Source: Roseiflexaceae bacterium (GTDB taxonomy: Bacteria > Chloroflexota > Chloroflexia > Chloroflexales > Roseiflexaceae). Taken from it: DNA of 64,000 bases. The notes below the pieces were generated by a model, which had not been told where the DNA came from, made no database searches, and saw nothing but the letters and a program-made list of their open reading frames with translations. The number at the start of each line of letters is the position of its first letter. The first letter of the stretch is position 1. The position numbers and the translations under genes are program-made. Of this stretch, positions 21,124 to 56,837 are shown piece by piece. The stretch lies in contig JBHOQX010000107.1 of NCBI GenBank assembly GCA_042408595.1, forward strand, positions 36,432-100,431. The letters are read 5' to 3'.

Positions 21124-21150
21124 AGCGGGACGGGAACGCGCGTTGAGGGA

Positions 21151-36038: not shown

Positions 36039-38141
36039 TTGCACCGCTGCTGCATGGTTGCGCCGTCAATCCCCATGCGCCGGACCCGACCCGCAAACCA
36101 CATTCGACCGTGGGCGCTGGCGTTGGTGGCCACCGCGCTGCTTGCCCTGGCGTGGCTCACCGGTCCGCTGGGGCGTCTTCTTGTCCTCCTCGCACTGCTG
36201 CTGTTCGCGCCAGGCTACCTGCTGGAGCGGGCGCTGCGCCCCCGGCTCGAGACGCCGTTCGCCCGTCCGGCGCTGTGGCTCGCCTTGAGTCTGAGCAGCG
36301 CCGCGCTCCTCTATGAATGGAGCACGGCGCTCCATCTCCACCTGACCACCGCCGCGCTCGCGTCGCTGCTGGGACTTTGCGCGCTGGCCGCTGCCGCCGC
36401 GGCCTGGCGCGAGCTGGGGCGCGTCCGGCCCGCACCTCCCGGCCCCGCCGTGCTCGGCTGGGCTGGGCTGCTGGCGTTGCTGGCGCTCACCGCCGGGACG
36501 CGCTTCGTTCAGATTCAGGGCCTCGCGCTCCCCGCCTGGGTCGACTCGGTGCACCACGCGCTGATGATCCGGGTGGCGGCCGAGCGGGGCCAGGCACCGC
36601 TGTCGCTCTACCCGTACCTGCCGGTCACGCAGTTGCCGTACCACTGGGGCTACCACGTCGTCATGGCGGCGGCTCTGCAACTCTCCGGCGCGTCGCTGCC
36701 GCAGACCATGCTGTGGGGCGGCCAGGGGCTGAACGCGCTGAGCGGGCTGGCCTGCGCCGCGCTCGCCGCTGCCCTCTGGCGCCGCCCGCTGGCCGGGGTG
36801 ATCGCCGCGCTAGTGGTCGGGCTGGTGTCGATCATGCCGGCGTACTACGTGAGTTGGGGGCGCTACACCCAGCTCACCGGTCTCCTTCTGTTGCCGGCGG
36901 CGGGGCTGCTGTGGCAGGCGGCGCTGCGCGCGCCGTCGCGCGGGCGCTGGGTGGCACTCGCCGTGGTGCTCGCCGGGCTGAGCCTGGTCCACATCCGGGT
37001 GCTGCTGCTGACGCTGGCGCTGCTGGCGGCGCTGCTGGCGGCGTGGGCGGTGCGCGAACCCGCGTTCGTCCTCAGGCAACGCCTCCTCCCCGCGCTGTTA
37101 GCGGGCGCGCTGGCTCTAGCGCTGACCGCCCCCTGGCTCGCGCTGCTGGCGCAGCGCTGGCTCGGCCGGATCGCTGCGGAGCCGGGTGTGCTGGCCGGCA
37201 GCCCGGGAAGCACCGCGCTGCATCTGGATATTCTCTGGGCAGGCACGAACCGCTGGCTGATCGCCCTGGCGCTGGCCGCCGCGCTCTGGGGAATCGCGCG
37301 GCGGCGGCGGGCGGCGGCCGCGCTGGCGCTATGGGTGGCGCTGGTGGTGGCCGCCGCCAACCCCTGGCTGCTGAGATACGTGCTGCCGGCGGCGGGAGCG
37401 GTGGCGCTGGTGCTGGCGGCACAGGTGCGCCGCTGGCTGCCCGCGGTCGTCGGAGCGACGCTACTGTGCTGCAACCCGGCGCTGGTACGCCTGCCGGCGT
37501 CATGGCTTTTGACGAACGATGTGGTTGCCATCAGTCTGTTCGTGCCGCTCAGCGCACTGATCGGTGGGGGCGCATGCCTGGCGTGGGAGGCGCTCGCGCG
37601 GCGGGCCGCATCCGCCGGAGCGTTGGCGCCGCGCGGCGCCCGCCTGGCGGGCGTGGCGGCGCTGGCCGCGCTGGCCATCTGGGGGGCCTGGAACCAGCGC
37701 AGCATTGTCAACCCGGCGACGGTGCTGGCGACCGGGGCGGATGTGGCGGCGATCGCCTGGGTGGCGGAGCACACCCCGCCCGACGCCCGCTTCCTTATCA
37801 ACGCGACCGAATGGCAGCGCGGCTCGGACCGCGCGGTGGATGGCGGCTGGTGGCTGTTGCCGCTCGCAGGCCGGTGGACGAGCACGCCGCCGGTGCTCTA
37901 TATCTTCGGCGACCCGGCCTATGTGCACGAGACGCAGGAGCGCAGCGAGCTGGTGCGCACCCTCACGCCAGCCGACATGCCGCGCCTGCTGGAGCGGATG
38001 CGGCGCGACGGGATCGGGTATGTGTACTTGGGGACGAAGCCCGGCGCGCTGACGAAAGCGATGTTCGCCGGCAACCCGGCGTTTGAGACCGTCTATGATG
38101 CTGGCGGCGTCACCATCCTTGCCGTCCGCCACGGGGCATGA
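36039..38141 (+). CDS. Polytopic GT-C-like membrane protein; paralogue of 50643..53162 (putative lipid-linked-sugar-dependent glycosyltransferase)
   Basis: More than 12 predicted TM helices. A WVDSVHH motif in the first extracytoplasmic loop. Shared SWGRYTQLTG and C-terminal FLINATEWQRGSDRAVDGGWWLLPLAGR motifs with the 839-aa paralogue. Confidence 0.6.
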   Translation: MHRCCMVAPSIPMRRTRPANHIRPWALALVATALLALAWLTGPLGRLLVLLALLLFAPGYLLERALRPRLETPFARPALWLALSLSSAALLYEWSTALHLHLTTAALASLLGLCALAAAAAAWRELGRVRPAPPGPAVLGWAGLLALLALTAGTRFVQIQGLALPAWVDSVHHALMIRVAAERGQAPLSLYPYLPVTQLPYHWGYHVVMAAALQLSGASLPQTMLWGGQGLNALSGLACAALAAALWRRPLAGVIAALVVGLVSIMPAYYVSWGRYTQLTGLLLLPAAGLLWQAALRAPSRGRWVALAVVLAGLSLVHIRVLLLTLALLAALLAAWAVREPAFVLRQRLLPALLAGALALALTAPWLALLAQRWLGRIAAEPGVLAGSPGSTALHLDILWAGTNRWLIALALAAALWGIARRRRAAAALALWVALVVAAANPWLLRYVLPAAGAVALVLAAQVRRWLPAVVGATLLCCNPALVRLPASWLLTNDVVAISLFVPLSALIGGGACLAWEALARRAASAGALAPRGARLAGVAALAALAIWGAWNQRSIVNPATVLATGADVAAIAWVAEHTPPDARFLINATEWQRGSDRAVDGGWWLLPLAGRWTSTPPVLYIFGDPAYVHETQERSELVRTLTPADMPRLLERMRRDGIGYVYLGTKPGALTKAMFAGNPAFETVYDAGGVTILAVRHGA

Positions 38142-38312
38142 TATGATTTCGGCCGTCGGGCGCGCCGTGCCGTCCGGCGATCATCCGGTTGCCAGGCGCT
38201 GTGCGCCGCAGCGGGTGGATGGCGGTCGTCGGTTCGGCGCACGTTCGGTCTCCCCCAGCATGCTATCTGCCCTCGGTGCAGAAGCGGCAAACATAGAGCC
38301 ATCACTACCGCC

Positions 38313-39701
38313 ATGACGACGAGCGACCTCCAGATCAGCGACCGCGAACGAGAGATTCTCCGCCTCGTCGCCACCGGCGCCACCAACCAGCAGATCGCCC
38401 AACAACTGCATATCAGCCCCAACACCGTCAAGGTGCATCTGCGCAATATTTTCGGCAAGATCGGCGTGGCGTCGCGCACCGAGGCCACGCTCTATGCCGT
38501 GCGCACCGGCCTGGTGCAGGTGGGCGAGGCCGCCGTGCCGCCCGGCGCGGAAGCCTCCGCGCCGGCGTCGGAGGCGCCCCAGGCGCCACCATCCACCGGG
38601 CCGCTGGAGGACGCGCCGGCTGTCACGCCGACGCCCGTGCCGGCGGCTGCACCGCGCGCCCGGCTGCACCCCTGGCTGCTTGGAGCGGCCGTTGTGTTCC
38701 TGCTGGCGCTGGCCGCGATCATCTATCTGGTGGCGCGCCCGCTCGCTACGCCGGGCGCACCCGCCGCGACCACGCTTCCCGGCGCTGGCAGCGTGGAGAT
38801 CCCCAAACCCGACCAGCGCTGGCTCGAGCTGCCGCCGATGCCGGCCGGGCGGGCCGGCTTCGCGCTCGCCGGCCAAGTGAGCGGCAGCCAGAGCGCGCTG
38901 TATGTGATCGCTGGCACGAACGGCGGCAGCATTACGGGCGACGTACAGCGCTTCGACCCCGGCAGCCGTGTGTGGACAGCGCTCAGCGCCAAGCCGACCG
39001 CTGTGACGGATGTGCAGGCGGCGGTGATCGGCAACCGGGTGTACGTGCCGGGCGGGCGGCTCGCCTCGGGCGCGATCACCAACGTCCACGAAGCGTACGA
39101 CCCGCAACGCGACCGCTGGGTGACGCTCAAGCCGTTGCCCGCGCCGCGCAGCGGCTACGCCCTGGCGGCGGTGGACGGCAAGCTCTATCTCTTCGGCGGC
39201 TGGGATGGCACGACCTACCGCGCCGATGTCTGGCAGTACAACCCCGACACGGACACCTGGGCGCAACGCACCCCCATGCCGACGGCGCGCGCCTTCGCCG
39301 GCGCGGTCGCCGGCGAGGGCCTAGTGTACATCTTCGGCGGGGAGAACAGCCGCGGTGTGCTCGCCACCAACGAGCGCTATGTGCCCGCCGAGGAGGGCGG
39401 CGCGCCGTGGGCCACTCGCGCGCCGCTGCCCGTGCCGACGAGCCATATGGCCGCGGCGCTCACCAGCGGCATCGCCTTTCTGCTCAGCGGGGCGGAGGCG
39501 CCGGGCCGGCTGATGGTGTACAACCTCGCGCTCGACTCGTGGCAACTCGGCAAGGCGCCGCTGGCTGCGCTGCGCGACCTGCGCGCCCAGGCGCTCGGCA
39601 ACAAGCTGTACATCCTGGGCGGCCAGGGCGCCGAGGGCATCAGCCCACGCGCCTACGAATACCAGGCGATGATCAATATCGTGCTGCCGCTCGCCCCGTA
39701 G
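38313..39701 (+). CDS. One-component regulator: N-terminal LuxR-family HTH, single TM helix, C-terminal Kelch-repeat beta-propeller
   Basis: EREILRLVATGATNQQIAQQLHISPNTVKVHLRNIFGKIGV (LuxR HTH). TM LGAAVVFLLALAAIIYLV. At least five Kelch blades (YVIAGTNGG..., VYVPGGR..., LYLFGGWDG..., VYIFGGEN..., LYILGGQG). Confidence 0.75.
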   Translation: MTTSDLQISDREREILRLVATGATNQQIAQQLHISPNTVKVHLRNIFGKIGVASRTEATLYAVRTGLVQVGEAAVPPGAEASAPASEAPQAPPSTGPLEDAPAVTPTPVPAAAPRARLHPWLLGAAVVFLLALAAIIYLVARPLATPGAPAATTLPGAGSVEIPKPDQRWLELPPMPAGRAGFALAGQVSGSQSALYVIAGTNGGSITGDVQRFDPGSRVWTALSAKPTAVTDVQAAVIGNRVYVPGGRLASGAITNVHEAYDPQRDRWVTLKPLPAPRSGYALAAVDGKLYLFGGWDGTTYRADVWQYNPDTDTWAQRTPMPTARAFAGAVAGEGLVYIFGGENSRGVLATNERYVPAEEGGAPWATRAPLPVPTSHMAAALTSGIAFLLSGAEAPGRLMVYNLALDSWQLGKAPLAALRDLRAQALGNKLYILGGQGAEGISPRAYEYQAMINIVLPLAP

Positions 39702-39726
39702 CATGCCCGAAGGCGACAGGAAACCT

Positions 39727-40809
39727 ATGCGCGTGCTGTTTACGTGTGGGCGAGAGCCGCAGTACACCCGCAACCAAGTCATCCTCAAGGCGCTCCGCCG
39801 CACCACGGAGGTTATCGAGATCACCGACAGCCACAAGAGCTACCCGATCCGGCACCTGCGGCTGCTCGGCAAACTCCTCGCCGGCTCCCGGAGGCACGAT
39901 GTCGTGTTCGTCGGCTTCTACGGCTACCTGCTAGTGTTCCTTGCCCGGCTGCTGTCGCGCCGCCCGCTGATCTTCGACGCCTACCTGTCGACGTATAACA
40001 CCCTGTGCTTCGACCGCCGGACCTTCGCGCCGAACTCGCTCGTGGGGCGGATGGCCTTCTGGCTCGACAAGCTGGCCTGCTCGATCGCCGATGTCGTGGT
40101 GGTGGATACGCGAGCGCACCTGAACTACTTCGTCGAGACCTACGGCCTGCCGCCGGAGAAGTTCGCCGTGCTGTACCTCGGCTGCGACGAGGAGCTGTTC
40201 TACCCGCGCCGCCCGCCGAGCGGGCCGCAGTTCAAGGTCTTTTACTACGGCTCCTACCTGCCGCTCCAAGGGATCGAATACATCATCCGCGCCGCGAAAC
40301 TGCTGGAAGACCAGCCGGACATCGTCTTCCAGATCGCCGGGCAGGGTATGCGCTATGCCGAGATGCGCGACCTGGCCGCATCGCTCGGCTGCCGCAACAT
40401 CGAATTCATCGACTGGATTCCGTACGCGCGCCTGCCGGAGTACATCGCCGAGGCGTCCGTCTGCCTCGGTGGTCACTTCTCGAACAGCGACAAGGCGCAG
40501 AATGTGATCGCCACCAAGACCTACCAGTTCCTCGCCATGGCCAAGCCGACGATCGTCGGTGCATGCGCCGCCAATGCTGAGATCTTCACCCATGGCGAGC
40601 ACGTCTACATGTGCCGGATGGCCGACCCGCGCTCGCTGGCCGACGCGATCCTGGCGCTGCGGGCCGACGGCGCCCTGCGCCGGACGATCGCCTGGGGCGG
40701 CTACCTGCAGTTCGCCGAGCGCTACAGCACGCCGCGCCTCGGCGAAGTGATTCAGGAGATCATCCAGCAAGCGTGCGCACCCGCGCGCCGCAATACACTG
40801 CCGCGATAA
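39727..40809 (+). CDS. Glycosyltransferase family 1 (GT4)-like
   Basis: The start is taken at MRVLFTCG with an AGGAAA RBS, and it overlaps the stop of the upstream regulator. The C-terminal half resembles a GT4 core (FQIAGQG...ATKTYQFLAMAKPTIV). Confidence 0.65.
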   Translation: MRVLFTCGREPQYTRNQVILKALRRTTEVIEITDSHKSYPIRHLRLLGKLLAGSRRHDVVFVGFYGYLLVFLARLLSRRPLIFDAYLSTYNTLCFDRRTFAPNSLVGRMAFWLDKLACSIADVVVVDTRAHLNYFVETYGLPPEKFAVLYLGCDEELFYPRRPPSGPQFKVFYYGSYLPLQGIEYIIRAAKLLEDQPDIVFQIAGQGMRYAEMRDLAASLGCRNIEFIDWIPYARLPEYIAEASVCLGGHFSNSDKAQNVIATKTYQFLAMAKPTIVGACAANAEIFTHGEHVYMCRMADPRSLADAILALRADGALRRTIAWGGYLQFAERYSTPRLGEVIQEIIQQACAPARRNTLPR

Positions 40810-40820
40810 GGGAGACCCCC

Positions 40821-41327
40821 ATGCACCGACACCTTGCTCCTCTTGGCCTGACCCTGCTCTTGCTTGCGGCCTGCAGCAACACGACGCCGCCCGCGCCGAC
40901 GGCGATCCCCGGGGCGCAGGTGGCCGTCACCGCCGCGCCGGCGCTGCCGGGGACGGTCATCCCGACCATGGCGCCGCGCCTCAACCCGAACCCCGCCGAG
41001 ACGCCCGTCATCGTGACCGGGCTGACGGTCGGCCCGGACGGCCACGAGATTGTCAGCATCGCCAATATCAGCGAGACCGACCAGCCGATCGGCCTGTGGT
41101 CGGTGTTCAACGAGCGCACGGGCGCGCATTTCGACTTCCCGGCGGACTTTGTGCTGAAGCCACAGCAGGTCGTAAAGGTGCATAGCGGCCCCGGCGCCGT
41201 CAACAACCCGCCCGGTGACCTGCTCTGGTCCACCGAGCGCCAGTGGACCGGGGACCAGGAGGATGTCATCCTGCTGAACCGCCCGGGCGCGGTGATGTAC
41301 CGCTTCGTCGCCGATCTTCGCAAGTAG
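40821..41327 (+). CDS. Lipoprotein with a lamin-tail-like (LTD) beta-sandwich domain
   Basis: Lipobox signal LLLLAACS. IANISETDQPIGLWSV...VILLNRPGAV is typical of LTD domains. Confidence 0.6.
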   Translation: MHRHLAPLGLTLLLLAACSNTTPPAPTAIPGAQVAVTAAPALPGTVIPTMAPRLNPNPAETPVIVTGLTVGPDGHEIVSIANISETDQPIGLWSVFNERTGAHFDFPADFVLKPQQVVKVHSGPGAVNNPPGDLLWSTERQWTGDQEDVILLNRPGAVMYRFVADLRK

Positions 41328-41567
41328 AGCAACCGACCTGCGCCTGGCAAGAGGAAGGGCAGGGTAGTGGAGGGTAGGAGCCAGGGCAGAACCTTCCCCA
41401 TCTTCAATCCGCATAGCGATCGGAAGTACTTCACATTGATGAGGCGATTAACCCAAAAGGGTTATTGCCGGGAATAGCTGGATCGCCTAGGATAGCAGTG
41501 GTGACAGGGACCGCGGAGGTTGCGCCTGTCGTCGCTATTCGTAACTACATCAAGCAAGGAGCACCGC

Positions 41568-43007
41568 ATGAAGCACTTCTCCCGCATCCTCGCCGCCGTC
41601 GCGCTACTGGGCGCGCTGGTGGCCGTGGTTGGGGTCGGGCCGCGCGCCACGCTGGCGGCGGGGCCGGCGCAATCGTCCACGATCAACGTCCTGAACCTGT
41701 CCAACAGCGACGCGACCATCCAGGTTTTCTACTACAACCCGGATGGCTCGCTGGCAACGATGGCGTCCGGCTACAGCAACCCGGATAACGACACCATCCC
41801 CGCCAACGCCTTCAAGGCCTATAACCCGATCCGCGCTGCGCCCGGTTTCAACGGATCGGTTGTGATCGCCTCGACCCAGGAGATCGCGGTGGTGTCGAAC
41901 ATCACGATCGCCTCGCCCGCGAGCGCTGTCGGCAGCTATGTGGGCATCAAGGCTGGCGGTCCGAAGGTCTACTTCCCGCTGGTGATGAAAGGCAATGCCG
42001 GGAACACCACGAATTTCAATGTGCAAAACACCGGCGCTTCGGCGGTGAACATCTCCATCCAGTTCGTGCCGGAGCCGGGTAGCAGCTACGCGTCCATCCC
42101 GACGGTCACCGATACCATCCAGCCGGGCGCTGCTAAGACCTACGACCAGGCGACGATGTCGCAGTTCAGCAGCGTCACCAAGTGGGTCGGCTCAGCGACA
42201 GTAACGGCGACATCCTCGGGCGGGACGATCGCCGGCGTGGCGAATATTGTTAATAGTTCGAACGCCAACGCGTATCGGCTCAGCACATACAACGCGTTCG
42301 GCGGCGGCTCGACGACCGTGCTGGCACCGCTGATCCAAGAGGCGAACAATGGTAACCGAACCTCGGTGAACTGCCAGAACCTCGGCAGCACGCCCACAAC
42401 GATCAACGTGGCCTATACCCCAGAGCCGGGCAACCCGAACAAGGCGTCGGAGTCCAAGTCGAACATCGTGCCGAACGGTATCGCTGTCTTCCTGCAGCTC
42501 GAATCGGGAGCGCAGAAGTTCGTCGGCTCGGCTACCATCACCTCGAGCCCGGCAGTGCCGCTGGCCTGTGTGATCAACCAGACACGCAGTGCGCTGGGGC
42601 GCGCTTCTTCGTATGAAGGCTTCGACCCGAGCACGGCGACGACGAAGATCGTCGTCCCGGTACTGCAGGGCTGCAACGGCAGCACAACGAATGGCTTCAA
42701 CTCGACGACGGTCAACGTCGCCTCGGTTGATGGTACGGCGGCAAACTTCACGATCGACTACAAGCCCGAGCCCGGGATCACCGATCCGCCGACGGCCAAC
42801 AAGAGCGGTGCGACGGCGGTCTTCAACCAGGCGCTGGCGTACAACTCCATTCCGTGTGGCCAGGCTGGTCAGCAGAAGTTCGTCGGCGGCGCGGTTGTAA
42901 CGGCGGATAAGCCGATTGTGGCGGTTGTCAACTTGGCGCGCGCTGGTGGTCCGTACACGGTGCGCGACACGCTCGCCACCTACGACGCGTTCAACGTCGC
43001 GCCGTAA
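41568..43007 (+). CDS. Secreted protein with four CARDB-like ~115-aa repeats
   Basis: Signal peptide MKHFSRILAAVALLGALVAVVG. Repeats each carry a VxNxGxxxxxI...PEPG signature. AAGGAG RBS 8 nt upstream. Confidence 0.65.
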   Translation: MKHFSRILAAVALLGALVAVVGVGPRATLAAGPAQSSTINVLNLSNSDATIQVFYYNPDGSLATMASGYSNPDNDTIPANAFKAYNPIRAAPGFNGSVVIASTQEIAVVSNITIASPASAVGSYVGIKAGGPKVYFPLVMKGNAGNTTNFNVQNTGASAVNISIQFVPEPGSSYASIPTVTDTIQPGAAKTYDQATMSQFSSVTKWVGSATVTATSSGGTIAGVANIVNSSNANAYRLSTYNAFGGGSTTVLAPLIQEANNGNRTSVNCQNLGSTPTTINVAYTPEPGNPNKASESKSNIVPNGIAVFLQLESGAQKFVGSATITSSPAVPLACVINQTRSALGRASSYEGFDPSTATTKIVVPVLQGCNGSTTNGFNSTTVNVASVDGTAANFTIDYKPEPGITDPPTANKSGATAVFNQALAYNSIPCGQAGQQKFVGGAVVTADKPIVAVVNLARAGGPYTVRDTLATYDAFNVAP

Positions 43008-43026
43008 GCAGCTGTCAGGTAGCAAG

Positions 43027-43064
43027 ACAGGTGGCGGTGTCAAACCGCCACCTGTTTTATTATG
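43027..43064 (+). terminator. Rho-independent terminator
   Basis: ACAGGTGGCGGT-GTCAAA-ACCGCCACCTGT perfect 12-bp stem followed by TTTATTAT, 20 nt after the stop codon. Confidence 0.85.
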
Positions 43065-43279
43065 CCCATCCCGAGCCCTCCAGGCTCGGGATAGGGGTAT
43101 AACTTCTCAGTTGAGAGGACGTACGCGGTGGGAAGGGTTGGCGCGGCGCGGCCCATCCAAGCCCTTTTTGGGGAACGCCGCCGCATCAGCTCTCCGTGGC
43201 GGGCCTGCGGCCCTCTATACCTCCTGCGCTGCAAGCGAGCGCGACCACGCCGTGTCAGTTGAGCGCTGCCTTGGCGGGT

Positions 43280-44248
43280 TCAGTGGCGCAGCAGCGCGAA
43301 GATCGCAGCCCAGACTAACTCAAAGATCATGACAAGCAACCGGGCGAGCACGGCGATCGCGATGGCCGTCGGCCAAGGCATAAACTGGCTGAGGAGATAG
43401 GCGGTTACCACTTGCCGCAGCGCCGGGACGGGCGCGAATTGCGCCAGCCAGCCAGCGAGCGCTGAGACAGCGGTGATATTCAGCATGGTTGGTATGAAGC
43501 TCGCGGGCAGATCGTAGACGCCAGCGGCGACGATAAAGTAAAATACCCCACTGTTCGCGAACAGCAGCACAAAGATCCCACTCCAGAGGAGCATGTCTCG
43601 CGGAGCAATCGGCGCGCTCAGCGGCTGCCGCCCCAGTCGCTGCAGCAGCGGATTGGCGACCCGCGTCAACAGCGCGGGCCGCAAGGCCAACAGCACGAGT
43701 GGAACCGGCAGCAGCCACGCCAGCACACCAGCACGGGCGGCCATTTGCGCTCCCGGACCATACCCAACGGTGAGGCCGGCGATGATCATCGCGCCGAGCA
43801 GAGTCGTTACAACCTCGTAGGACATCGCCAGCATTGTCGTACTCCGTGCGATGCCCCTCGCCGCATAGGATTCGGTGCGTGCACCGACAAAGGGCAGCGG
43901 CGTCGGCAGGCGGTTCGCCAGGTTCGTCAGGCAGAAGAGTCGCATGTGCGCTAGCATGGCGCGGTCGCCCGAGATATGCCGCATGATCAGCGCCCAGGCC
44001 AGCGCGGTGAGCAGCAGCCCGGCTGAATACAGGACGAACGCCAGCACCAGATTCCACGGGCGGATGTGCCAATCGTACGATCGAATCTGGCTCCAGTTCG
44101 TGACGATCCGATAGGCGATGTAGCTGAGCGTCAGCGCGATGGCCGCGATCCATGCGATCCGGGCGATACGCCGGGCGTGTGGGCGCACGGCCTGCCACAG
44201 GCGCAGCGGGTGCGAGGGCGACGCCGCCTTATCAGGAGAGTAGTTCAT
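43280..44248 (-). CDS. UPF0104 / lysylphosphatidylglycerol-synthase-TM-like flippase-family membrane protein
   Basis: Eight predicted TM helices. Its start overlaps the stop of the neighbouring GT-C gene. Confidence 0.6.
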   Translation of the reverse strand: MNYSPDKAASPSHPLRLWQAVRPHARRIARIAWIAAIALTLSYIAYRIVTNWSQIRSYDWHIRPWNLVLAFVLYSAGLLLTALAWALIMRHISGDRAMLAHMRLFCLTNLANRLPTPLPFVGARTESYAARGIARSTTMLAMSYEVVTTLLGAMIIAGLTVGYGPGAQMAARAGVLAWLLPVPLVLLALRPALLTRVANPLLQRLGRQPLSAPIAPRDMLLWSGIFVLLFANSGVFYFIVAAGVYDLPASFIPTMLNITAVSALAGWLAQFAPVPALRQVVTAYLLSQFMPWPTAIAIAVLARLLVMIFELVWAAIFALLRH

Positions 44249-46142
44249 ACAGAATCAGTTCCTGATCAGCAAATAGCTTACGTGCATGCCGATCGAGCAC
44301 GCCGTTCATAGTTGCGGTAAACTTCTGGCCGTAGGGGAGATTGTTGTAGCGACCGGGATTCTTCGTCGTAAAGATGATGTGCGTAAATCCCCGCGACAAA
44401 AGGTCATCCGCCAGTTCCTCTGGCGTGTCGTACTGCTCTAATCTGAGCGCCCGCTGGCTGATTGGGTTAGCCCAGGCATAGTCCCGGTCGAGATAATAGC
44501 CGCGCGACTCGTTCAACGCCAGCAGCACCCGGGCGTTCTGCGGCAACGCAGCGTTGGCGTAAGCGTAGATCTTATAGCCCGGCACCGTGCTAGCGAGAAA
44601 CTCCTGGCGGTCCTGTGCGCCCGACAGATACGGCCAGCGTGTCGCCAGGCGCGCCCGGTCGTCCGGCCGTACGGCCCACAGACTGGCGGCGAGGCCGGCC
44701 ACCAGCCCGGCCTGCACCGCCACCCGCCAGGCGCCGGCCCGGATGTGCCACAGCCAGTACGCACCGCCCGCACCTAGCAGCGCAAGCAGCGGCAGGATCG
44801 GCATCAGAAAGCGCGTCTGGTGGGTCTGAAGGAACCACGACGTATAAAAGATCAGCCAGAGCGCCGCGAACCAGCGCGCCATCCGCCGCTCAGGCGCGGG
44901 CAACAGGAAGAGCGCCGGCACAGCCAACAGGATCAGCGGGCGGAAGAGCCAGCCGACGTTCATCTGCGGCGGTCCGAACGGATGGGTTGTTGTTGTCGCG
45001 CGCCACATGTTCAACAGCCAGTTGGCGGGATCAAGCGGGGTGTTTGTGATGCGGATGTAGCCGAACAAATACTGTGAGCCGAGTTGGTCCCAATCGCGCG
45101 CGCCGAGCCATTCCTGAAAGAACGGCCAGAACGGGTTGCCGGTGAGCAGCCAGGTCTTCGTATACCACGGCGTGACCACCAGGAAGCCGACGAGCCCATA
45201 GCTGGCGAAAAGCCCGGCCGCGCGCCATGCGCTGGTCCGCCGGCCGACCAGCGCGATACCTCCAACCAGCGTCCCCAGAATGGCCGCCAGCACAGCGGCG
45301 TTCATCTTGGTGCTGGCGGCCAGCCCGGCGAAGATCGCCGAGAGCAGCCAGTTGGCCTGCGCTCCATCGTCCAGCCAGAGCAGAAAGGCGGCGATCGCCA
45401 GGAATGTGAACAGCGCCAGCGGCACTTCGACCAGACCGACGCCCGCCAGCGCGCCGGTCATCGGGGCCGTGGCGACCAGCGCGGCGGCGGCAAGCCCGGC
45501 CGCCCCGCCGAACGCGCGCCGCCCGGCCGCCCAGACCGCTACGCAAAGCAGCAAGAGCGCCAGCCAGGAGACCAAATGCGCCAGAATGTCCGCGCCGAGT
45601 AGGAGCCCGAGCATAGAGAGCATCTCGGTCTCCAGCGGCCAGTTGGAATAGGGGATGAACGGGATGTAGCGAATGCCGCCGTGCGCGATATACAGCTTGG
45701 GGATCGCCAGGTGGTACGCGACTTCATCCCAGGCGGCCGGCGGGACAAGCGCGTCCGCGAGCAGCGGGTAGAGGCAGCCCAGCGCGATGATCGACAGCAG
45801 GGCGGCAGCGAACCAGCCGGGCCGGGCGATAAGGCGCAACGATGCGAGCGCCGCACGATATGCCGCCCGCTGGCGGCGGATCTCCAGCAGCGCGAGCAGG
45901 GCCGCGAGCGCCAGAAGCATCCAGGCGAATCGCGGCCGGAGCAGCCCGAGCGCACCGAGGCCAAGGGCGAGATGCCCCAGGCTACCCAGGCCAAGCGCCG
46001 TGGCGAAGATATAGAACTCGGGCCGTGCCCGGTCGCGCCAGCCGAGCAGATGCGTCAGCGGTGCGCCAACCCCGAATGCAGCGATCAGTACAAGTGCCAA
46101 CAAGGCGAACGAAGACCCGACCAGTTGGGCAAACGCGGCCAT
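44232..46142 (-). CDS. GT-C family membrane glycosyltransferase (GT39/ArnT/PMT-like)
   Basis: Polytopic. DE motif in the first loop (AAWDEVAYHLAIPKLY). Long C-terminal soluble domain. Confidence 0.7.
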   Translation of the reverse strand: MAAFAQLVGSSFALLALVLIAAFGVGAPLTHLLGWRDRARPEFYIFATALGLGSLGHLALGLGALGLLRPRFAWMLLALAALLALLEIRRQRAAYRAALASLRLIARPGWFAAALLSIIALGCLYPLLADALVPPAAWDEVAYHLAIPKLYIAHGGIRYIPFIPYSNWPLETEMLSMLGLLLGADILAHLVSWLALLLLCVAVWAAGRRAFGGAAGLAAAALVATAPMTGALAGVGLVEVPLALFTFLAIAAFLLWLDDGAQANWLLSAIFAGLAASTKMNAAVLAAILGTLVGGIALVGRRTSAWRAAGLFASYGLVGFLVVTPWYTKTWLLTGNPFWPFFQEWLGARDWDQLGSQYLFGYIRITNTPLDPANWLLNMWRATTTTHPFGPPQMNVGWLFRPLILLAVPALFLLPAPERRMARWFAALWLIFYTSWFLQTHQTRFLMPILPLLALLGAGGAYWLWHIRAGAWRVAVQAGLVAGLAASLWAVRPDDRARLATRWPYLSGAQDRQEFLASTVPGYKIYAYANAALPQNARVLLALNESRGYYLDRDYAWANPISQRALRLEQYDTPEELADDLLSRGFTHIIFTTKNPGRYNNLPYGQKFTATMNGVLDRHARKLFADQELILYELLS

Positions 46143-46163
46143 ACGGCTCCTACGCTACCGGCT

Positions 46164-47090
46164 TCACGAAGGCTTGCGTGCAAAGAAGACAACCGATGAA
46201 CCAAAACCCAGCCTGCGTAGCGGAAACAAAAGCGGCGCACTGGCGACGCGCGCCGCCGCGGAGCGCGCCAGTCGCTGCGCCACGCGTGCTAGCCTCGCCC
46301 GCTGCTGGGCCTCTAGCCACGCGCTGAGACTATCCATGAATGCGCTGTAGTCACTCCCTAGCTGTGCGCGCGCGATCTCGTCGAAGCCACTCCGCCTCAG
46401 TTGCCGCGCTAGCACCTGTGCTGAGAAGCCGAACAGATGCTGCGGCGCCTCATACCCGACCCACCAGCGGCCGAATAGCCGGGCTTCGATCGAGCTCGGA
46501 TCGGGGACCTTGAGGGCCACCCAGCCGCCAGGGCGTAGTATACGCCAGATCTCGCGGAGGTGCGCCGCTGGATCATCGACATGCTCCAGCACGTCCCACA
46601 TCGTCACAACATCAAAACTTCCGTCGGGAAAGCCGGCTTCGAGCAGCGTCCCCTGAAAGATGTGCAGACCGAAGCGTTGTCGCGCGTACTCCGCTGCGGT
46701 GGCAACCGGCTCAACACCCTGCACCTGCCAACGCCCGTGCTGCCGCATCTCGTCGAGAAAAACCCCTGTGGCGCAGCCAACATCGAGCAGGCAGCCGTGC
46801 GATTGGCGATGCATGATTGCACGGCACCGCCGCTGTACACCGTACCGGAGTGCCCACCGTCGGAAGGCCGAGGGTTGGTCGGCGATCGCGCCGATAAACG
46901 GATGATATGAATCAGGGTAGTGGCGTGCTAGCTCTGCCCGGTCGGGGCGTGGATTGAGATACAGCAGCCCGCACACGCGGCAGCGAACCAGTGTGAACTC
47001 CCCCGGCAGGCGCAGCCGTATGTCGGTCAGGGTGTGGACAACCTGCGCGGAGTCGGCCCCGCAGAAATTACATGTAACGTGCTGCATCAT
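46164..47090 (-). CDS. Class I SAM methyltransferase with an N-terminal CxxC...CxxC zinc ribbon
   Basis: CNFCGAD...CRVCGL zinc ribbon. Motif I LLDVGCATGV. VVTMWDVLEHV. LRPGGWVALKVP. The ORF-track entry 46164..47519 is over-extended; the start is at MMQHV (47090). Confidence 0.75.
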   Translation of the reverse strand: MMQHVTCNFCGADSAQVVHTLTDIRLRLPGEFTLVRCRVCGLLYLNPRPDRAELARHYPDSYHPFIGAIADQPSAFRRWALRYGVQRRCRAIMHRQSHGCLLDVGCATGVFLDEMRQHGRWQVQGVEPVATAAEYARQRFGLHIFQGTLLEAGFPDGSFDVVTMWDVLEHVDDPAAHLREIWRILRPGGWVALKVPDPSSIEARLFGRWWVGYEAPQHLFGFSAQVLARQLRRSGFDEIARAQLGSDYSAFMDSLSAWLEAQQRARLARVAQRLARSAAARVASAPLLFPLRRLGFGSSVVFFARKPS

Positions 47091-47283
47091 GCTAGGCCCG
47101 AGGGGGCCTTCCTCCACTCTCAGATGTAGGGTTTTCCGCAGCGCAGGAGCATGGTGTAAAGGGTTTTTAGGGCGAGGCGTCCATCGGTTACGATGGTGGT
47201 TACCAGGCCAACCTATCGTCAGGAGGATGGATGCCCCGCCCACCAGGATTATCGTAATGGGAGCAGACCGTGTCAACCTACCT

Positions 47284-48198
47284 GCCGTACGTAAGCCGTC
47301 CGCAGCCATGCGTGCTGAGTCTGTATAGCTTTGGGCTCCTCCTTGCCCAGCATTGTGGTCTGACGCAGGTCGCCGTCCTCTAGGCGGCGCTGCTTGACCG
47401 GTCAGACGCGGCGACGCGCGAACAACTGCGCGACTGGTACCGCGATGCCGCCCACAAACGCGGGGCCAAACGCGGCGACAAACGCCGCAGCCTCGTGGTG
47501 CAGGACTGTTTTGCCCCATTGTTCCGGTGGGTGCTGACGCTGTATCCGCCCCACTGCCACCACCGTGCGCTCGCTATGGATGCCTCGACCTTGGGGCAGC
47601 GCTTTACCATCCTCAGCATCACCGTGCCGGTGCATGGCTGCGCCATTCCCATCGCCTGGCGCGTGGTTGAGGCCACGCGTGCTGGGGCCTGGCGCCCGCA
47701 TTGGGAAGCGCTGTTTGGCCAGTTCGCCGGTGTTGTCCCGTCCGACTGGACGGTGATCGTGACCGCCGACCGTGGTTTGTACGCCAGTGGCTGTTTACGA
47801 CCATCACGGCGCTTGGCTGGCACCCGTCGCTCCGCATCAAGCGCCAAGGCACGTATTGTCCTGTCGGAACGACTACGTTTCGACCGCTCAGCGGCGTCGT
47901 GACGCAGGGCGGGATGCCGTAGCAGGGCCGCGTGACCTATTTTGTGATCAAGGAGCGCCAACTGGCCTGCACCCTGTTGGCGCGGTGGGATGCAGGCTTT
48001 ACCGACCCCTAGTTGATCCTGACCGACCTTGCCCCTGCGCAGGCCGATGGAGCCTGGGACGGCCTGCCTGCCTGGATTGAAGGCGGCTACAAGGACGCGA
48101 CACGCGGCGGCTGGCATTGGGAACAGACCAAGATGACCGACCGCAACGGGCAGAACGGCTCTAGCTCGTCATGGCCGTCGCACCCTTGTGGTTGGTAA
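47284..48198 (+). pseudogene. Degenerate IS4/IS701-like DDE transposase
   Basis: Transposase-like segments are split across three frames with internal stops. They include ALAMDASTL (first D region), VIVTADRGLYAS..LGWHPSLRIK (second D) and AWIEGGYKDATRGGWHWEQTKMTD (E/K region). The N-terminus is missing. Confidence 0.6.
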
Positions 48199-48472
48199 GC
48201 GTCGGCAGCGCCGCCGAGGTCGCGCAACCCCCAGTCGCCTCGCACGATGCTGCCCCCACCCCATATCGCGCGCCGCACGGCGAGCGGTCGCCGCCCGGTT
48301 CGTCAACTGAGCTGCTTTCACCGCGGACGCCTGCTGCTGGTGACGGCGCTGATCCGCGGGCACGCGTTGCCATCGATGCACGTAGTGCCCGAGCCGTGGC
48401 CAAAAGTCTTGACACCCATATCCACCACCCCGAGGCCTATCGACCGCTTCCCAATGCGGCATAACAAAAACC

Positions 48473-49369
48473 CTACACCTGAGAGGCCTCCCTCCATCCC
48501 TGCCACAGACCTTCAATATACGGACGAATCTGGTCGTGCTGGCCGCGCAGCAGATCGTGCGCGATCCGCCTCGCGGCGATGACAGCAATGGCCACGTAGG
48601 TCAGCCACGGATGCGGGCCATGGGGGTGGCGGCGGTAGAAGCGCACCCGGTTGCGCGCGCGGATGCGCCGGATGGCTGCTGATTCCTTTCTGGTACTGAG
48701 CGACACTTTGTGGTAAACCACGGCTCTGCCGACATAGGTGATTCGGAACCCACGATCACGCGCCCGGCGACAGAAATCGGAGTCTTCGTAGTACATAAAC
48801 CAAGATTCGTCAAACAGGCCGATGATGTCGAACAACGCCGCCCTGATGAGCATCGCGCAGCCGCTCACGTAATCGAACTCGATCGTCCGGTGATAGCGCG
48901 CTCCATCGTGGCGTCGGACACCGAAGCTCAGCGGCAGCGGTAGCCAGCGATACATCCGGTCGCCGGCGCGGTACAGGCGTGATGGATCGGCGAAGAGCAG
49001 CACTCTCGGCGCAGCGATGCCGATATCCGGGTTGGCCTCCATCTCACGGACGAGGGTCGCCAGCGCGTCCGGATCGACGATGGTGTCGTTGTTGAGGGCG
49101 AAAACATAGGCTGCGCCGAGCGCGCGGGCGTGCTCGATGCCGTCGTTGAGCGCCGCCGCGTAGCCGCCGTTCTCGGCGCGGGCGATGACATGCGCCTCGG
49201 GGAAGCGCGCCCGCACTAGCGCGACCGAATCGTCGGTCGAGGCGTTGTCCACGACGACGATCTGGTGTCGCGAGTAGCGCGCGCGCCGTAGTGACTCAAG
49301 ACACGCGGCGAGATCGTCGCGCAGGTTCCAGTTTGGGATGACAGTTACGACCAGCGGCTCAGACATCAC
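48473..49369 (-). CDS. Glycosyltransferase family 2, candidate polyprenyl-phosphate sugar synthase
   Basis: VVTVIPNWN...VVVDNASTDDS...ALNNDT (DxD). About 298 aa, a size typical of GtrB/ArnC/Ppm1-like enzymes. Its ATG overlaps the stop of the upstream GT4 (ATGA). Confidence 0.75.
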   Translation of the reverse strand: MMSEPLVVTVIPNWNLRDDLAACLESLRRARYSRHQIVVVDNASTDDSVALVRARFPEAHVIARAENGGYAAALNDGIEHARALGAAYVFALNNDTIVDPDALATLVREMEANPDIGIAAPRVLLFADPSRLYRAGDRMYRWLPLPLSFGVRRHDGARYHRTIEFDYVSGCAMLIRAALFDIIGLFDESWFMYYEDSDFCRRARDRGFRITYVGRAVVYHKVSLSTRKESAAIRRIRARNRVRFYRRHPHGPHPWLTYVAIAVIAARRIAHDLLRGQHDQIRPYIEGLWQGWREASQV

Positions 49370-50565
49370 TATAACTGCTCCTGCAACGCCGACGCAGGAT
49401 TCAGCACTCGCTCATACACACCGTAGGTGCAGGCCATCATCCGATCGAGGCTGAAGCGCTCGACGCTCTCCAGCCCCGCTGCCGCCAGCCGCTGGCGCAG
49501 TGCTGCGTCTTGCAGCAGGCGGATAATCGCCTGTGCCAGGGCATCCGGCACGTCCGGCACGACGAGCAGGCCGTTGCGCTCGTGTTCCACGATCTCCGGA
49601 ATGCCGCCCACCCGCGCGCCGACGACCGGCACGCCAGCGGCCATGGCTTCGAGCAGCGCCACGCCGAATGCCTCGGTGAGCGACGGCAGCGCGAAGACAT
49701 CGGCGGCAGCGTAGCTGGCGACCAGTTCCTCCTGCCTTTGCAGCCCCAGGAAGCGCACCGCGCCGGCGACGCCTTCGGCCCGCGCCAGCGCCTGCATCCG
49801 GCCCACCGCGGTGTCCCGCCCGACGACGCACAACTCGGCGTCCGGCGCGGCGCGCCGCACCAGCGGCATGGCGCGAATCAGCGTGGGCAGCCCCTTGCGC
49901 TGCATGTTGCCGCCGACAAACAACACCCGCGGCGGGTGCGGCGGCAGCGCGGCCCGCAGCGCGCGGGCGGCCCGGTAGCGCGTCGGGTCGACACTCTTGT
50001 AGCACATATGCAGCCGCTCCGGCTTCACCCGGTAGGCGGCGGCGACCGCTCGCGCGGTGTAGCGGCTGTTCGCCATCACCGCCGTGAGCCGCGGCAGCGC
50101 GATGCGCTCGGCGAGGCGCACGGCGTGGTAGTAGGCCCAGCGCGCCGCCCAGTCGTGATAGTAGCGGCGGTAGTAGGCAAGCGAGCGGACCTCGGCGGCG
50201 TAGGTGTCGTTCACGTTCCCGACCGCCGGCGCGGGGGCGCGGCACAGCAGCGACTCGCGGGCGTCGGTGAAATGCACCAGATCGAAGCGCTCGCGCCGCT
50301 CCGCTTCCGCCAGCGCCCGCCCGAAGCTGCGGCTGAGCGAGACCCAGCGCGCCTGCGAGTCGGCCAGGCGGGCGGGCGGGACGCCGATGTAGTTGAGCGG
50401 CAGCCCGGCCTCCGGCCGCTGATCCTCCGGCCCAATCACGGTGACGCGGTGGCCGTCTGCGGCCAGGCGCGCCGCCAGGTTCCGGGTGTGCAACCCGATC
50501 CCGCTCAGCACCGAGCGAAACTGCTGCGTGACGATGCAGATGGAGAGGGGCTCTGTCTCGGCCAT
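49369..50565 (-). CDS. Glycosyltransferase family 1 (GT4)
   Basis: The start is taken at MAETEPLSICIVTQQF. GT4 core LFVGGNMQRKGL...FALPSLTEAFGVALLEAMAAGVPVV. Confidence 0.8.
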   Translation of the reverse strand: MAETEPLSICIVTQQFRSVLSGIGLHTRNLAARLAADGHRVTVIGPEDQRPEAGLPLNYIGVPPARLADSQARWVSLSRSFGRALAEAERRERFDLVHFTDARESLLCRAPAPAVGNVNDTYAAEVRSLAYYRRYYHDWAARWAYYHAVRLAERIALPRLTAVMANSRYTARAVAAAYRVKPERLHMCYKSVDPTRYRAARALRAALPPHPPRVLFVGGNMQRKGLPTLIRAMPLVRRAAPDAELCVVGRDTAVGRMQALARAEGVAGAVRFLGLQRQEELVASYAAADVFALPSLTEAFGVALLEAMAAGVPVVGARVGGIPEIVEHERNGLLVVPDVPDALAQAIIRLLQDAALRQRLAAAGLESVERFSLDRMMACTYGVYERVLNPASALQEQL

Positions 50566-50642
50566 ACTGTGTGTGATCCGTGTTGCGTCATCCGTAACCC
50601 CACCTCCGACCGCCGGTGAAGCCCACAACTCAAAACTCAGAA

Positions 50643-53162
<2,520 letters not shown>

Positions 53163-55902: not shown

Positions 55903-56418
55903 CTAGCGATCCGCCTGTTGCACGCGCTCCTGCCATTCGAGCAGGCGGGCGCGCTGCGCCGGGTTCAGCGCGATGATCGGGCGGGCGCGGCGGATACGGG
56001 CCAGCGCCTCATCCGCGGAGCTGCCGCAGGCGACAAGGTAGGCCGCGGCGGTGAGGGGGGCCCGCCCGACGCCGGCGTGGCAGTGCACCAGCACCGGCAG
56101 CCGCCTGGCGTGGGCCGCCGCGATGAAGTCCACCGCCTCGCGGAGCTGCTCCAGCGTCGGCGCGTGGAAATCCGGCACCAGCAGCCGGTGGGCGCGCTCG
56201 GGCGGCGGCCCGGCGAAGCGATCCGCGCGCTCGGCCTGGAGGCTGAGCACGGCGCGAATGCCCAGCGCATAGAGCGCCGGCCACTGGCGCGGGCGGAACT
56301 GCCCGCCAACGTACAGCAACTCATCCACCCGGCTGACGTTCGGGCCGACCAGGCGGCGCCACTGGGTCGCCAGGTACAGCCAGCGCAGCGAGGTGTTCGA
56401 ATGGTCGCTCGGGATCAT
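55903..56418 (-). CDS. Dual-specificity / tyrosine protein phosphatase
   Basis: Catalytic P-loop VHCHAGVGRAP (HCx5R). The start is at MIPSDH. Confidence 0.75.
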   Translation of the reverse strand: MIPSDHSNTSLRWLYLATQWRRLVGPNVSRVDELLYVGGQFRPRQWPALYALGIRAVLSLQAERADRFAGPPPERAHRLLVPDFHAPTLEQLREAVDFIAAAHARRLPVLVHCHAGVGRAPLTAAAYLVACGSSADEALARIRRARPIIALNPAQRARLLEWQERVQQADR

Positions 56419-56518
56419 AGAGCTCTCATAGCAGGCACGACATTGCGCCGCGGGCGCGACTGCGCTATTATACCCGCATCCCTGCGCCGCCGGCCCAAGC
56501 AGCGATGGAGGAGCGCCG

Positions 56519-56797
56519 ATGTTGACCGCCTTCGTGCAGATCCATGCCCAGCCCGCCAAGATCTCCGAGGTCGCGCAGGCGATCGCGAACATGCCGAACG
56601 TCGCCGAGGTGTACAGTGTGACCGGCGAGTTCGATATCATCGCCGTTCTGCGCCTCCCGGAGTACGAGCAGCTCGCCGAGGCCGTGCCGGAGGGGCTGGC
56701 CCGGATCGACGGCGTGCTGCGCACCAATACCATCCTGGCGTTCCGGCGCTTCTCGGCCAAGGACCTCGCCGCCGCCTGGGATATCGGCGTCTCCTGA
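56519..56797 (+). CDS. Stand-alone Lrp/AsnC C-terminal (RAM) ligand-binding domain protein
   Basis: 92 aa. AEVYSVTGEFDIIAVLRLPEYEQLAE is the AsnC_trans_reg fold. There is no HTH. Confidence 0.7.
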   Translation: MLTAFVQIHAQPAKISEVAQAIANMPNVAEVYSVTGEFDIIAVLRLPEYEQLAEAVPEGLARIDGVLRTNTILAFRRFSAKDLAAAWDIGVS

Positions 56798-56820
56798 GCT
56801 TGCCCGCGCCCCGCGCCGTG

Positions 56821-56829
56821 TGGTACAAT
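56821..56829 (+). promoter_or_regulatory. Putative extended -10 box TGGTACAAT for tRNA-Leu
   Basis: It ends 8 nt before the mature tRNA 5' end. Confidence 0.4.
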
Positions 56830-56837
56830 CAAGGGGC

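Follow-up and report, generated by a model that had tools for sequence, protein, structure and literature searches.

The closest described counterparts of the locus reported here are three-component glycosylation systems, in which a GT2 glycosyltransferase makes a polyprenyl-phosphate sugar, a flippase moves it, and a GT-C glycosyltransferase transfers the sugar outside the membrane. They include GtrA/GtrB/Gtr*, ArnC/ArnEF/ArnT, CsbB/GtcA/YfhO, and polyprenyl-phosphoribose synthase/MATE/GT136 (PMC11127046, PMC7389260). Here we describe a stretch of 64,000 nucleotides from a Roseiflexaceae bacterium of the phylum Chloroflexota (contig JBHOQX010000107.1, positions 36,432 to 100,431), hereafter called the window, in which a gene cluster (Table 1) encodes two paralogous membrane proteins of the Pfam family DUF6541. 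On the basis of modeled structure and gene neighborhood, DUF6541 probably represents a new family of GT-C glycosyltransferases that use lipid-phosphate sugars in envelope-glycan assembly, a reading that we favor with some reserve.

The DUF6541 cluster resembles the three-component systems in that a GT-C gene is coupled to a GT2 synthase gene, which in relatives lies directly upstream on the same strand and often overlaps it, and in that a candidate flippase is also encoded. In contrast to those systems, the GT-C protein belongs to the DUF6541 sequence family with its WGDS..H / WGRYTQL / DGGWW motif set, the flippase candidate is a UPF0104 protein rather than a member of GtrA, SMR or MATE, and the pair is embedded in a fixed cluster of about ten genes, of which the window has a version with three GT-C genes and no synthase. 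UPF0104 is a predicted flippase in archaeal glycosylation, where it is encoded near PMT/STT3-like and AglD-like GT2 genes; the same three roles are predicted for the archaeal neighborhood of UPF0104, arCOG00563, and an AglD-like GT2 (Makarova et al. 2015, PMC5898192), but the DUF6541 cluster is bacterial and its GT-C family is a different one. A flippase role has likewise been assumed for GpgF (PMC12713373).

Family, fold, and topology of the DUF6541 proteins

Because the G+C content of the window is about 70%, genes were called by GC bias at the third codon position (GC3). The three large polytopic membrane proteins of the original prediction are indeed encoded where it had placed them, by open reading frames (ORFs) with coding-type GC3 values of 0.81 to 0.88, and each has about 9 to 11 hydrophobic spans. 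Two of them, of 700 and 839 amino acids (aa), pass the gathering threshold of 29 bits for Pfam DUF6541 (PF20176), scoring 33.4 and 73.6 bits, respectively, and the 839-aa protein covers model positions 2 to 640 of 646. The 700-aa protein probably begins at the ATG at 36075, as its closest homolog is 688 aa long. The two proteins had been said to match no nameable family; they do match a named one, yet DUF6541 has no function attached to it, and the remark was a fair one. Searches of the literature on DUF6541, on GT-C enzymes in Chloroflexi, and on O-methyl sugars in Chloroflexus wall polysaccharide yielded nothing of use.

The paralogy of the two proteins and the sequence motifs that they were reported to share also held up. 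The 700- and 839-aa proteins carry WVDSVHH/WGDSYQH, SWGRYTQLTG/NWGRYTQLAG, and DGGWWL(L)PL(L)AGR. A BLASTP alignment between the two is confined to the C-terminal third (E = 1e-21), and hhalign comparison of two 41-sequence alignments (A1 and A2) spans 605 columns at 33% identity with a probability of 100% and E = 8e-72, pairing D326 with D169, H330 with H173, and YHFGFH with YHWGYH, together with the common WGRYTQL and DGGWW. Judged by these profiles, they are full-length paralogs, with about 190 additional N-terminal residues in the 839-aa protein. Each has hundreds of full-length homologs at about 45 to 58% identity. Across the two sets of 41 sequences (about 50% identity), D326/D169, H330/H173, WGRYTQL, and DGGWW are invariant, and the acidic residue in the first loop of the core is a single Asp rather than DxD or DE. 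Some orthologs match Pfam DUF1616, an archaeal family; the window protein does so weakly (E = 0.079).

The Pfam models for PMT_2, STT3, and the Aft/Emb proteins do not match either DUF6541 protein at E ≤ 10, which places both outside PMT_2. They share with ArnT/PMT_2 and with AftA, AftB, AftD, and Emb an acidic residue in the first outside loop and the expectation of a polyprenyl-monophosphate sugar donor, and the presence of several GT-C paralogs in one locus recalls the mycobacterial arabinan system, whose paralogs differ in acceptor specificity. Unlike the ArnT, Aft, and Emb proteins, however, they have motifs and a C-terminal domain of their own, and genes for the biosynthesis of decaprenylphosphoryl arabinose (DPA) or 4-amino-4-deoxyarabinose (Ara4N) are not present. 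As far as sequence comparison reaches, DUF6541 lies outside PMT_2, STT3, and any named GT-C family, and its motif set, C-terminal domain, and fixed cluster are its own.

Structures of both proteins were modeled with confidence by AlphaFold2 with ortholog alignments, yielding a predicted local distance difference test (pLDDT) score of 83 and a predicted template modeling (pTM) score of 0.86 for the 839-aa protein, and values of 89.9 and 0.90 for the 700-aa protein. When the 839-aa model was compared with the PDB by Foldseek, all 18 matches at E ≤ 1e-3 were GT-C enzymes (AftA, 1e-9), with ArnT and AftA scoring as well as oligosaccharyltransferases (OSTs). Sequence searches against PDB chains with the 839-aa and 636-aa proteins and with the 41-sequence profile A1 gave no meaningful match. 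Because sequence-level similarity to a solved GT-C enzyme is lacking, the GT-C assignment rests on predicted structure; by these models, the DUF6541 proteins are members of the GT-C superfamily at the level of fold. In fold, the N-terminal beta-sandwich of the 839-aa protein matches carbohydrate-binding modules (CBMs) and PHR-type jelly rolls, and the C-terminal extracytoplasmic domain resembles the C-terminal core domain of AglB.

A GT-C fold would also be compatible with a protein that has no enzymatic activity and serves as a lipid- or glycan-binding scaffold or as a transporter subunit, as PIG-U/GAB1 does in the glycosylphosphatidylinositol (GPI) transamidase. No activity has been demonstrated for any DUF6541 member, which fits such a role. 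Nevertheless, catalytic GT-C enzymes far outscore PIG-U in the fold comparison, the first-loop Asp and several charged and aromatic residues in loops predicted to lie outside are invariant, and the gene is coupled to that of a polyprenyl-phosphate hexose synthase in 54 of 66 loci, all of which make a nonenzymatic DUF6541 highly unlikely.

For topology, the modeled helices were taken as membrane spans with the N terminus inside, and Lys plus Arg residues were counted in each loop. The short predicted inside loops hold 14 among 66 residues versus 4 among 119 in the outside loops. The beta-sandwich (aa ~55–180), the WGDS..H loop with D326, the flexible WGRYTQL loop, and the C-terminal domain are all predicted to face outside. 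A strict lipobox Cys follows the N-terminal signal in 28 of 41 orthologs, and a near-lipobox Cys is found in most others, so the beta-sandwich in these proteins should be exported and lipid anchored. Most orthologs of the 839-aa protein thus carry a lipoprotein signal (L-x-G/A-C), and the CBM-like domain at the N terminus of a polytopic GT-C protein would be held by a lipid anchor. In the window protein, Leu stands in place of this Cys, and the signal has probably been kept as an anchor. The check that had been proposed for the DS motif therefore came out in its favor, in that the Asp is invariant and predicted to lie outside by both the positive-inside count and the lipobox signals of orthologs.

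The conserved cluster and its rearranged form in the window

A pattern scan with one genome per species revealed DUF6541 relatives in 445 species-level genomes, almost all of them metagenome-assembled genomes (MAGs) of Anaerolineae, Chloroflexia, or Thermoflexia, and the family comprises 3,963 clusters at 50% identity (E ≤ 1e-3). Eighty loci (numbered with the prefix L) were fetched with 10-kb flanks, which limit all homolog counts given here, and were searched with the window proteins by tblastn. Among the 66 loci that include an upstream flank, 54 have a GT2 gene on the same strand no more than 400 bp upstream of the 839-aa ortholog, often only 4 nt from the DUF6541 gene or overlapping it. 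These GT2 proteins are 52 to 73% (mostly 60–73%) identical to that of L003. Three of them match the AglJ (E = 1e-32 to 2e-34), PgfS, and ArnC models over nearly the whole length and the PpgS and Dol-P-hexose transferase models over the catalytic ~190 residues, all below equivalog cut-offs (110–120 bits versus a cut-off of 325 for AglJ), and end in two hydrophobic C-terminal transmembrane (TM) helices. Because of these model matches and the helix pair, we assign the three GT2 proteins to the polyprenyl-phosphate hexose synthase type.

The gene order that recurs is AglJ-like GT2, DUF6541, GT4, GT4, WbbL-like GT2, methyltransferase (sometimes two), UPF0104, secreted repeat protein, small lipoprotein, and, on the opposite strand, a regulator with LuxR and Kelch domains (examples are L037, L055, L063, L043, L048, L052, L074, and L078). 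Homologs of the WbbL-like GT2 were found in 37 loci, of the secreted repeat protein in 35, of the methyltransferase in 34, of the UPF0104 protein in 20 (downstream and on the same strand), and of the LuxR-Kelch protein in at least 15. In compact clusters (L037 and L055), the stretch from the AglJ-like GT2 to the regulator contains no other initiating phosphoglycosyltransferase and neither Wzx nor Wzy. Genes for Wzx-type flippases, for pyruvyl- and sulfotransferases, and for more GT-C-like membrane proteins are found in larger versions. Orthologs of the 700-aa protein make up a separate set in Chloroflexia (Kouleothrix and Oscillochloris) that has kept the LuxR-Kelch neighbor, and in L006 the neighborhood of the 700-aa ortholog also includes GT2, GT4, and methyltransferase genes.

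On the minus strand of the window, starting from 53162, the order is DUF6541 (839 aa), GT4, GT2, an insertion sequence (IS) remnant, methyltransferase, PMT_2, and UPF0104, followed in inverted orientation by the secreted repeat protein, lipoprotein, GT4, LuxR-Kelch, and DUF6541 (700 aa). A gene for a PD40/DUF7402 protein occupies the place upstream of the 839-aa gene. The window cluster is thus a rearranged version of the conserved one, with a second, diverged DUF6541 paralog, an extra PMT_2 gene, an IS insertion, and no synthase. The combination of synthase, flippase, and GT-C enzyme that had been proposed for this locus is strongly supported by synteny in relatives, whose canonical clusters hold the full trio, but the window itself has three GT-C genes and a candidate flippase without the synthase.

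Table 1. Coordinates of the cluster genes and the insertion sequence, numbered from the first nucleotide of the window
Feature	Position	Strand	Description
DUF6541 paralog A	36039..38141	+	700 aa; predicted GT-C-fold membrane protein with C-terminal extracytoplasmic alpha/beta domain
LuxR-Kelch protein	38313..39701	+	LuxR (GerE) helix-turn-helix, one TM helix, extracytoplasmic Kelch propeller; conserved cluster member
GT4 glycosyltransferase	39703..40809	+	368 aa; Pfam Glyco_trans_1_4, Glycos_transf_1
Small lipoprotein	40821..41327	+	168 aa; LTD-like domain (E = 1e-7, below cut-off); lipobox LLAAC
Secreted repeat protein	41568..43007	+	479 aa; signal peptide, four internal beta-rich repeats
UPF0104 / LPG_synthase_TM-family membrane protein	43280..44248	-	322 aa; related to MprF flippase domain
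PMT_2 (ArnT/PMT-type) GT-C glycosyltransferase	44232..46142	-	636 aa; first-loop DE motif AAWDEVAYH
Methyltransferase, S-adenosylmethionine dependent	46164..47090	-	308 aa; N-terminal Cys4 motif; Methyltransf_23 E = 2e-31
Decayed insertion sequence	47106..48496 with duplication; element 47117..48485		1369 bp; at 3' end of GT2 gene
GT2 glycosyltransferase	48473..49369	-	298 aa; WbbL/GlfT1/MftF type, soluble GT-A
GT4 glycosyltransferase	49369..50565	-	398 aa from probable start ATG 50565; Glycos_transf_1 E = 3e-39, Glyco_transf_4 E = 1e-20
DUF6541 paralog B	50643..53162	-	839 aa; N-terminal signal anchor, CBM-like beta-sandwich, predicted GT-C membrane domain, C-terminal domain

The third large membrane protein, of 636 aa, was correctly described as having the first-loop DE motif of the GT39/ArnT type, and it exceeds the cut-off of 26.1 bits for Pfam PF13231 (39.7 bits, E = 7e-10). 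This protein is a true PMT_2 member and in this respect the locus resembles ArnT/PMT_2 systems; one member of its JGI cluster is named 'Ara4N transferase-like glycosyltransferase'. Among the 80 related loci, only L034, the closest locus, encodes a homolog (47% identity), and the gene is a lineage-specific insertion into the cluster.

The adjoining gene, which overlaps the PMT_2 gene by 17 nt, encodes the flippase-like protein of the original prediction. A homolog search with the 322-aa protein gave only four matches, and the syntenic orthologs in the fetched loci were used instead. The protein itself scores below the PF03706 cut-off of 33.4 bits (15 bits, E = 0.018) in a collinear alignment of residues 33 to 312 with model positions 1 to 300 of 302. 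Its closer homologs (45 and 42% identity) score 18.1 and 26.2 bits, and the latter carries the JGI name YbhN/UPF0104. Three syntenic orthologs (27, 26, and 26% identical) score 43.5, 34.4, and 30.3 bits (E = 3.6e-11, 2e-8, and 4e-7), the first two above the cut-off and the third below it. We therefore accept the protein as a UPF0104 member by homology and consider it a candidate flippase.

Among the remaining cluster genes, the one for the LuxR-Kelch protein (Pfam GerE, E = 8e-22; Kelch_1, E = 6e-38; TM peak at aa 122–140) has homologs that adjoin the 700-aa orthologs in L006 and L007, and the protein is a putative membrane-anchored one-component regulator by its domain content. Copies lie at 12158–13711 in L006, 15569–16951 in L007, and 19885–21228 (minus strand) in L037, making it a conserved neighbor of both DUF6541 groups. 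Homologs of the 368-aa GT4 (40–48% identity) adjoin a DUF6541 gene in 28 related loci, and those of the 398-aa GT4 occur in 29. The 168-aa lipoprotein has a counterpart in only one related locus, whereas the 199-aa type of L037 is found in 20; the window protein is lineage specific and replaces the unrelated ~198-aa lipoprotein of canonical clusters. Where several methyltransferases had been listed beside the GT-C genes, one real methyltransferase was confirmed, with its probable start mapped to 47090. Versions of 381 and 451 aa were rejected, as both run into the IS element.

This element has terminal inverted repeats of 19 nt (CTCTCAGATGTAGGGTTTT; 0 expected by chance) and lies between the two copies of an 11-bp target-site duplication (GCCTTCCTCCA / GCCTCCCTCCA). 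It appears by eye to be IS4/IS701-like, and a frameshift and stop codons interrupt its DDE-transposase-like frames. The insertion replaced the last residues of the GT2 protein, whose stop codon now lies inside the right repeat; precise excision would restore a GT2 of 300 aa with its stop codon 1 nt from the methyltransferase ATG. The 1.37-kb space between the GT2 and methyltransferase genes is the IS, and L034 has the two genes adjacent. An ORF at 47380..48117 (245 aa) that is annotated on a Logan contig is spurious, being Arg rich, without a family match, and antisense to the transposase remnants.

Several further observations were made among the related loci. One Chloroflexia MAG has tandem DUF6541 genes (L041, 7512–12427). 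Further polytopic proteins that are GT-C-like but unrelated occur in other clusters, such as a 522-aa membrane protein that has an ADEF motif in its first loop and lacks a family annotation (L003, 12503–14071) and a 518-aa membrane protein with no precomputed Pfam match (L004, 13692–15248). In several distant relatives, a gene for a Peptidase_M23 plus PPC-domain protein of 1064 to 1327 aa is located directly upstream of the AglJ-like GT2 gene (L002, 3715–7698; L004, 5831–9025; L037, 5699–8914), which suggests that the cluster is connected with peptidoglycan remodeling. Some contigs with typical clusters are labeled Pyrinomonadaceae, 'delta proteobacterium', Roseobacter, Methanomethylicaceae, or Bathyarchaeia (L009, L025, L026, and L086; P0063 and P0110). 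These labels probably reflect binning errors rather than horizontal transfer and were not used. The closest named relatives are Chloroflexia and Anaerolineae MAGs.

Proposed donor, acceptor, and mode of transfer

The original prediction had assigned synthesis of the lipid-linked donor to the 298-aa GT2 of the window, which would then feed all three GT-C enzymes. The GT2 gene and the adjacent GT4 gene are real, as judged by Pfam and NCBIfam matches, and they are tightly coupled, but not by the reported ATGA overlap: the junction is TAGTGATG, in which the stop codon is TAG and the next gene starts either at a GTG that shares 1 nt with it or at an ATG 2 nt downstream. The size of the protein, its GT2 family, this coupling within the same cluster as the GT-C genes, and a weak similarity of its N-terminal nucleotide-binding region to the PpgS, ArnC, and AglJ models (E = 1.3e-6, 0.003, and 0.002) would all fit a synthase. 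However, these model matches are confined to residues ~7 to 115, and a hidden Markov model (HMM) built from 53 AglJ-like synthases aligns only to aa 22 to 138. The best matches over the full length (~210–250 residues) are the NCBIfam models for MftF (E = 3.7e-24), rhamnosyltransferase (4.5e-18), and GlfT1 (2e-10), together with EpsD, and its relatives in the PDB are soluble GT2 enzymes. It has no C-terminal TM pair. Moreover, canonical clusters hold both this type of GT2 and a separate AglJ-like synthase, and the two are therefore not interchangeable. The GtrB/ArnC/Ppm1-type assignment did not survive comparison with these profiles, an outcome that the original prediction had itself named as refuting it for this gene, and a role of the 298-aa protein as polyprenyl-phosphate sugar synthase is, in our judgment, effectively ruled out by the full-length matches to other families and the N-terminal confinement of the synthase models and the 53-sequence HMM.

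A synthase gene is in fact absent from the 64-kb window, as determined by tblastn with three AglJ-like GT2 proteins and by a search of six-frame ORFs with the 53-sequence HMM. The gene that provides the donor must therefore lie elsewhere in the genome.

From family membership, fold, conservation, predicted topology, and synteny, we infer a donor, a flippase, a catalytic residue, and a class of acceptor as follows. At the outer face of the cytoplasmic membrane, the DUF6541 enzymes would draw their sugar from a polyprenyl-phosphate-linked donor. In most Chloroflexota this donor would be the product of the AglJ/PpgS/ArnC-like GT2 whose gene immediately precedes that of the 839-aa ortholog, and the UPF0104 protein of the cluster probably flips it. 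The invariant Asp (D326/D169) of W(G/V)DS..H in the first extracytoplasmic core loop may be the catalytic or acceptor-activating residue. The cytoplasmic GT4 enzymes, the WbbL-like GT2, and the methyltransferase would build a (methylated) envelope glycan or glycoconjugate, which the GT-C enzymes would complete or decorate outside the membrane. The LuxR-Kelch protein probably regulates the cluster from its membrane anchor.

The CBM-like beta-sandwich of the 839-aa protein may hold the glycan acceptor. CBMs in the GT-C enzymes EmbA-C, AftD, and GT136 ORF12 bind glycan acceptors (PMC11127046), and some DUF6541 members resemble these enzymes in having a CBM-like domain, which by analogy points to an acceptor that is a glycan. 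As a protein acceptor, the original prediction had offered a secreted CARDB-repeat protein, but there is no such protein among those scanned: the secreted repeat protein of the window, taken at 495 aa, has no Pfam match at E ≤ 10, CARDB included, and CARDB was not returned in scans of other window proteins with cut-offs of 0.01 or 1e-4. The secreted protein contains about 20% Ser plus Thr and 9% Asn and is 31% identical over its full length (E = 3e-43) to a 470-aa protein of L002, which matches DUF5719 at E = 4e-7. It belongs to a family of ~440 to 480 aa with the motif ..PL.M..N.G..T.F.VQN.G.. (L002, 17605–19017; L037, 17740–19092; L055, 10166–11488; and others). It could be an acceptor, an accessory protein, or an envelope component. 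Its N-glycosylation is not supported by the sequences of 28 homologs, among which there is no N-X-S/T column kept in at least half, and sequon counts in most homologs tested are within about one standard deviation (SD) of composition-matched shuffles; only the window protein and that of L034 exceed them, mildly, by about 2.3 SD. For O-linked glycans, these counts speak neither for nor against the protein as an acceptor.

The same cluster could instead encode an Agl-like pathway, with DUF6541 as a strongly diverged oligosaccharyltransferase or ligase that moves a whole glycan to a protein, such as the secreted repeat protein of the cluster, or to the wall. The AglJ-like GT2 would add the first hexose to polyprenyl phosphate, the GT4 enzymes and WbbL-like GT2 would extend the chain and the methyltransferase would modify it on the cytoplasmic side, and the UPF0104 protein would flip it, amounting to a Chloroflexota-wide, archaeal-style pathway for a polyprenyl-monophosphate-linked, methylated oligosaccharide. 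This reading draws on likeness to STT3/AglB/PglB and the Haloferax Agl pathway: the AglB-like top fold match and C-terminal domain, the adjacent GT2 of relatives that best fits the AglJ model, the methyltransferase, and the UPF0104 protein (a domain that is also fused to AglD). It is also favored by the compact clusters, where no other initiating phosphoglycosyltransferase, Wzx, or Wzy is present, and by the conservation of a secreted Ser/Thr/Asn-rich protein in the cluster. The list of cluster enzymes parallels Haloferax AglJ/G/I/E/P/B. In addition, a helix of the C-terminal domain begins with two invariant Trp residues (WW), in a way reminiscent of WWDYG.

Unlike STT3/AglB/PglB, however, the DUF6541 proteins have no sequence match to Pfam STT3 at E ≤ 10, no WWDxG motif, and no first-loop DxD, and the candidate acceptor has no conserved sequon, its counts being mostly as composition predicts. 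ArnT and AftA score as well as OSTs with the 839-aa model, the CBM-like domain points to a glycan as acceptor more than to a peptide, and the Wzx-type flippases, pyruvyl transferase, and sulfotransferase of larger clusters are typical of polysaccharide loci. On balance we regard en bloc transfer as unlikely, though it is the main rival of the reading that we favor.

Several points also weigh against the assignment of DUF6541 as a GT-C glycosyltransferase family that uses lipid-phosphate sugars. We found no paper that mentions the family. Similarity to solved GT-C enzymes is not seen in sequence even by profile and comes from predicted structure, and the motif has a single Asp where many GT-C families have a DxD or DE pair. 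The window, from which the donor synthase is missing, holds less than the full system, and the 700-aa group has no adjacent synthase in L005 to L007. Synteny fits single-sugar and en bloc transfer alike.

Surrounding genes and the Chloroflexota envelope

Envelope biosynthesis genes abound throughout the window. Outside the cluster they include a GT4-methyltransferase fusion of 703 aa (11–2122, minus strand), another GT4 (8377–9531, minus strand), and, among the genes at 18047–19270 and 9962–11428 (both plus strand), a GT28 of the monogalactosyldiacylglycerol (MGDG)-synthase type and MurT. A GDP-mannose 4,6-dehydratase gene (22786–24777, plus strand; 663 aa) contains an intein (~23329–24345; about 339 aa, with a LAGLIDADG domain), which lies in the conserved NHE|SPRRG motif, starts at Cys182, and ends in HN followed by Ser. 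A tRNA gene at 56838–56919 (plus strand; Rfam, 57 bits) is overlapped by ORFs at 55903–57960 (minus strand) and 56881–57867 (plus strand), and at least one of these two ORF calls must therefore be over-extended.

What makes up the multilayered envelope of Chloroflexota is still debated, and recent cryo-electron tomography (cryo-ET) work describes the identity of the layers as unclear (PMC7332563, PMC13319060). The analysis defines a conserved cluster of roughly ten genes, including a secreted repeat protein and a LuxR-Kelch regulator, and turns DUF6541 into a specific hypothesis: a protein with a predicted GT-C fold, an invariant Asp predicted to face outside, and a near-obligatory polyprenyl-phosphate hexose synthase partner. 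Should the less likely en bloc pathway prove true, it would build one chemically undefined outer layer of the envelope. If DUF6541 proteins are indeed glycosyltransferases, they would add a new sequence family, possibly OST-like, to the GT-C enzymes, and a phylum-wide envelope-glycan cluster of this kind would be an obvious candidate to explain part of the Chloroflexota envelope.

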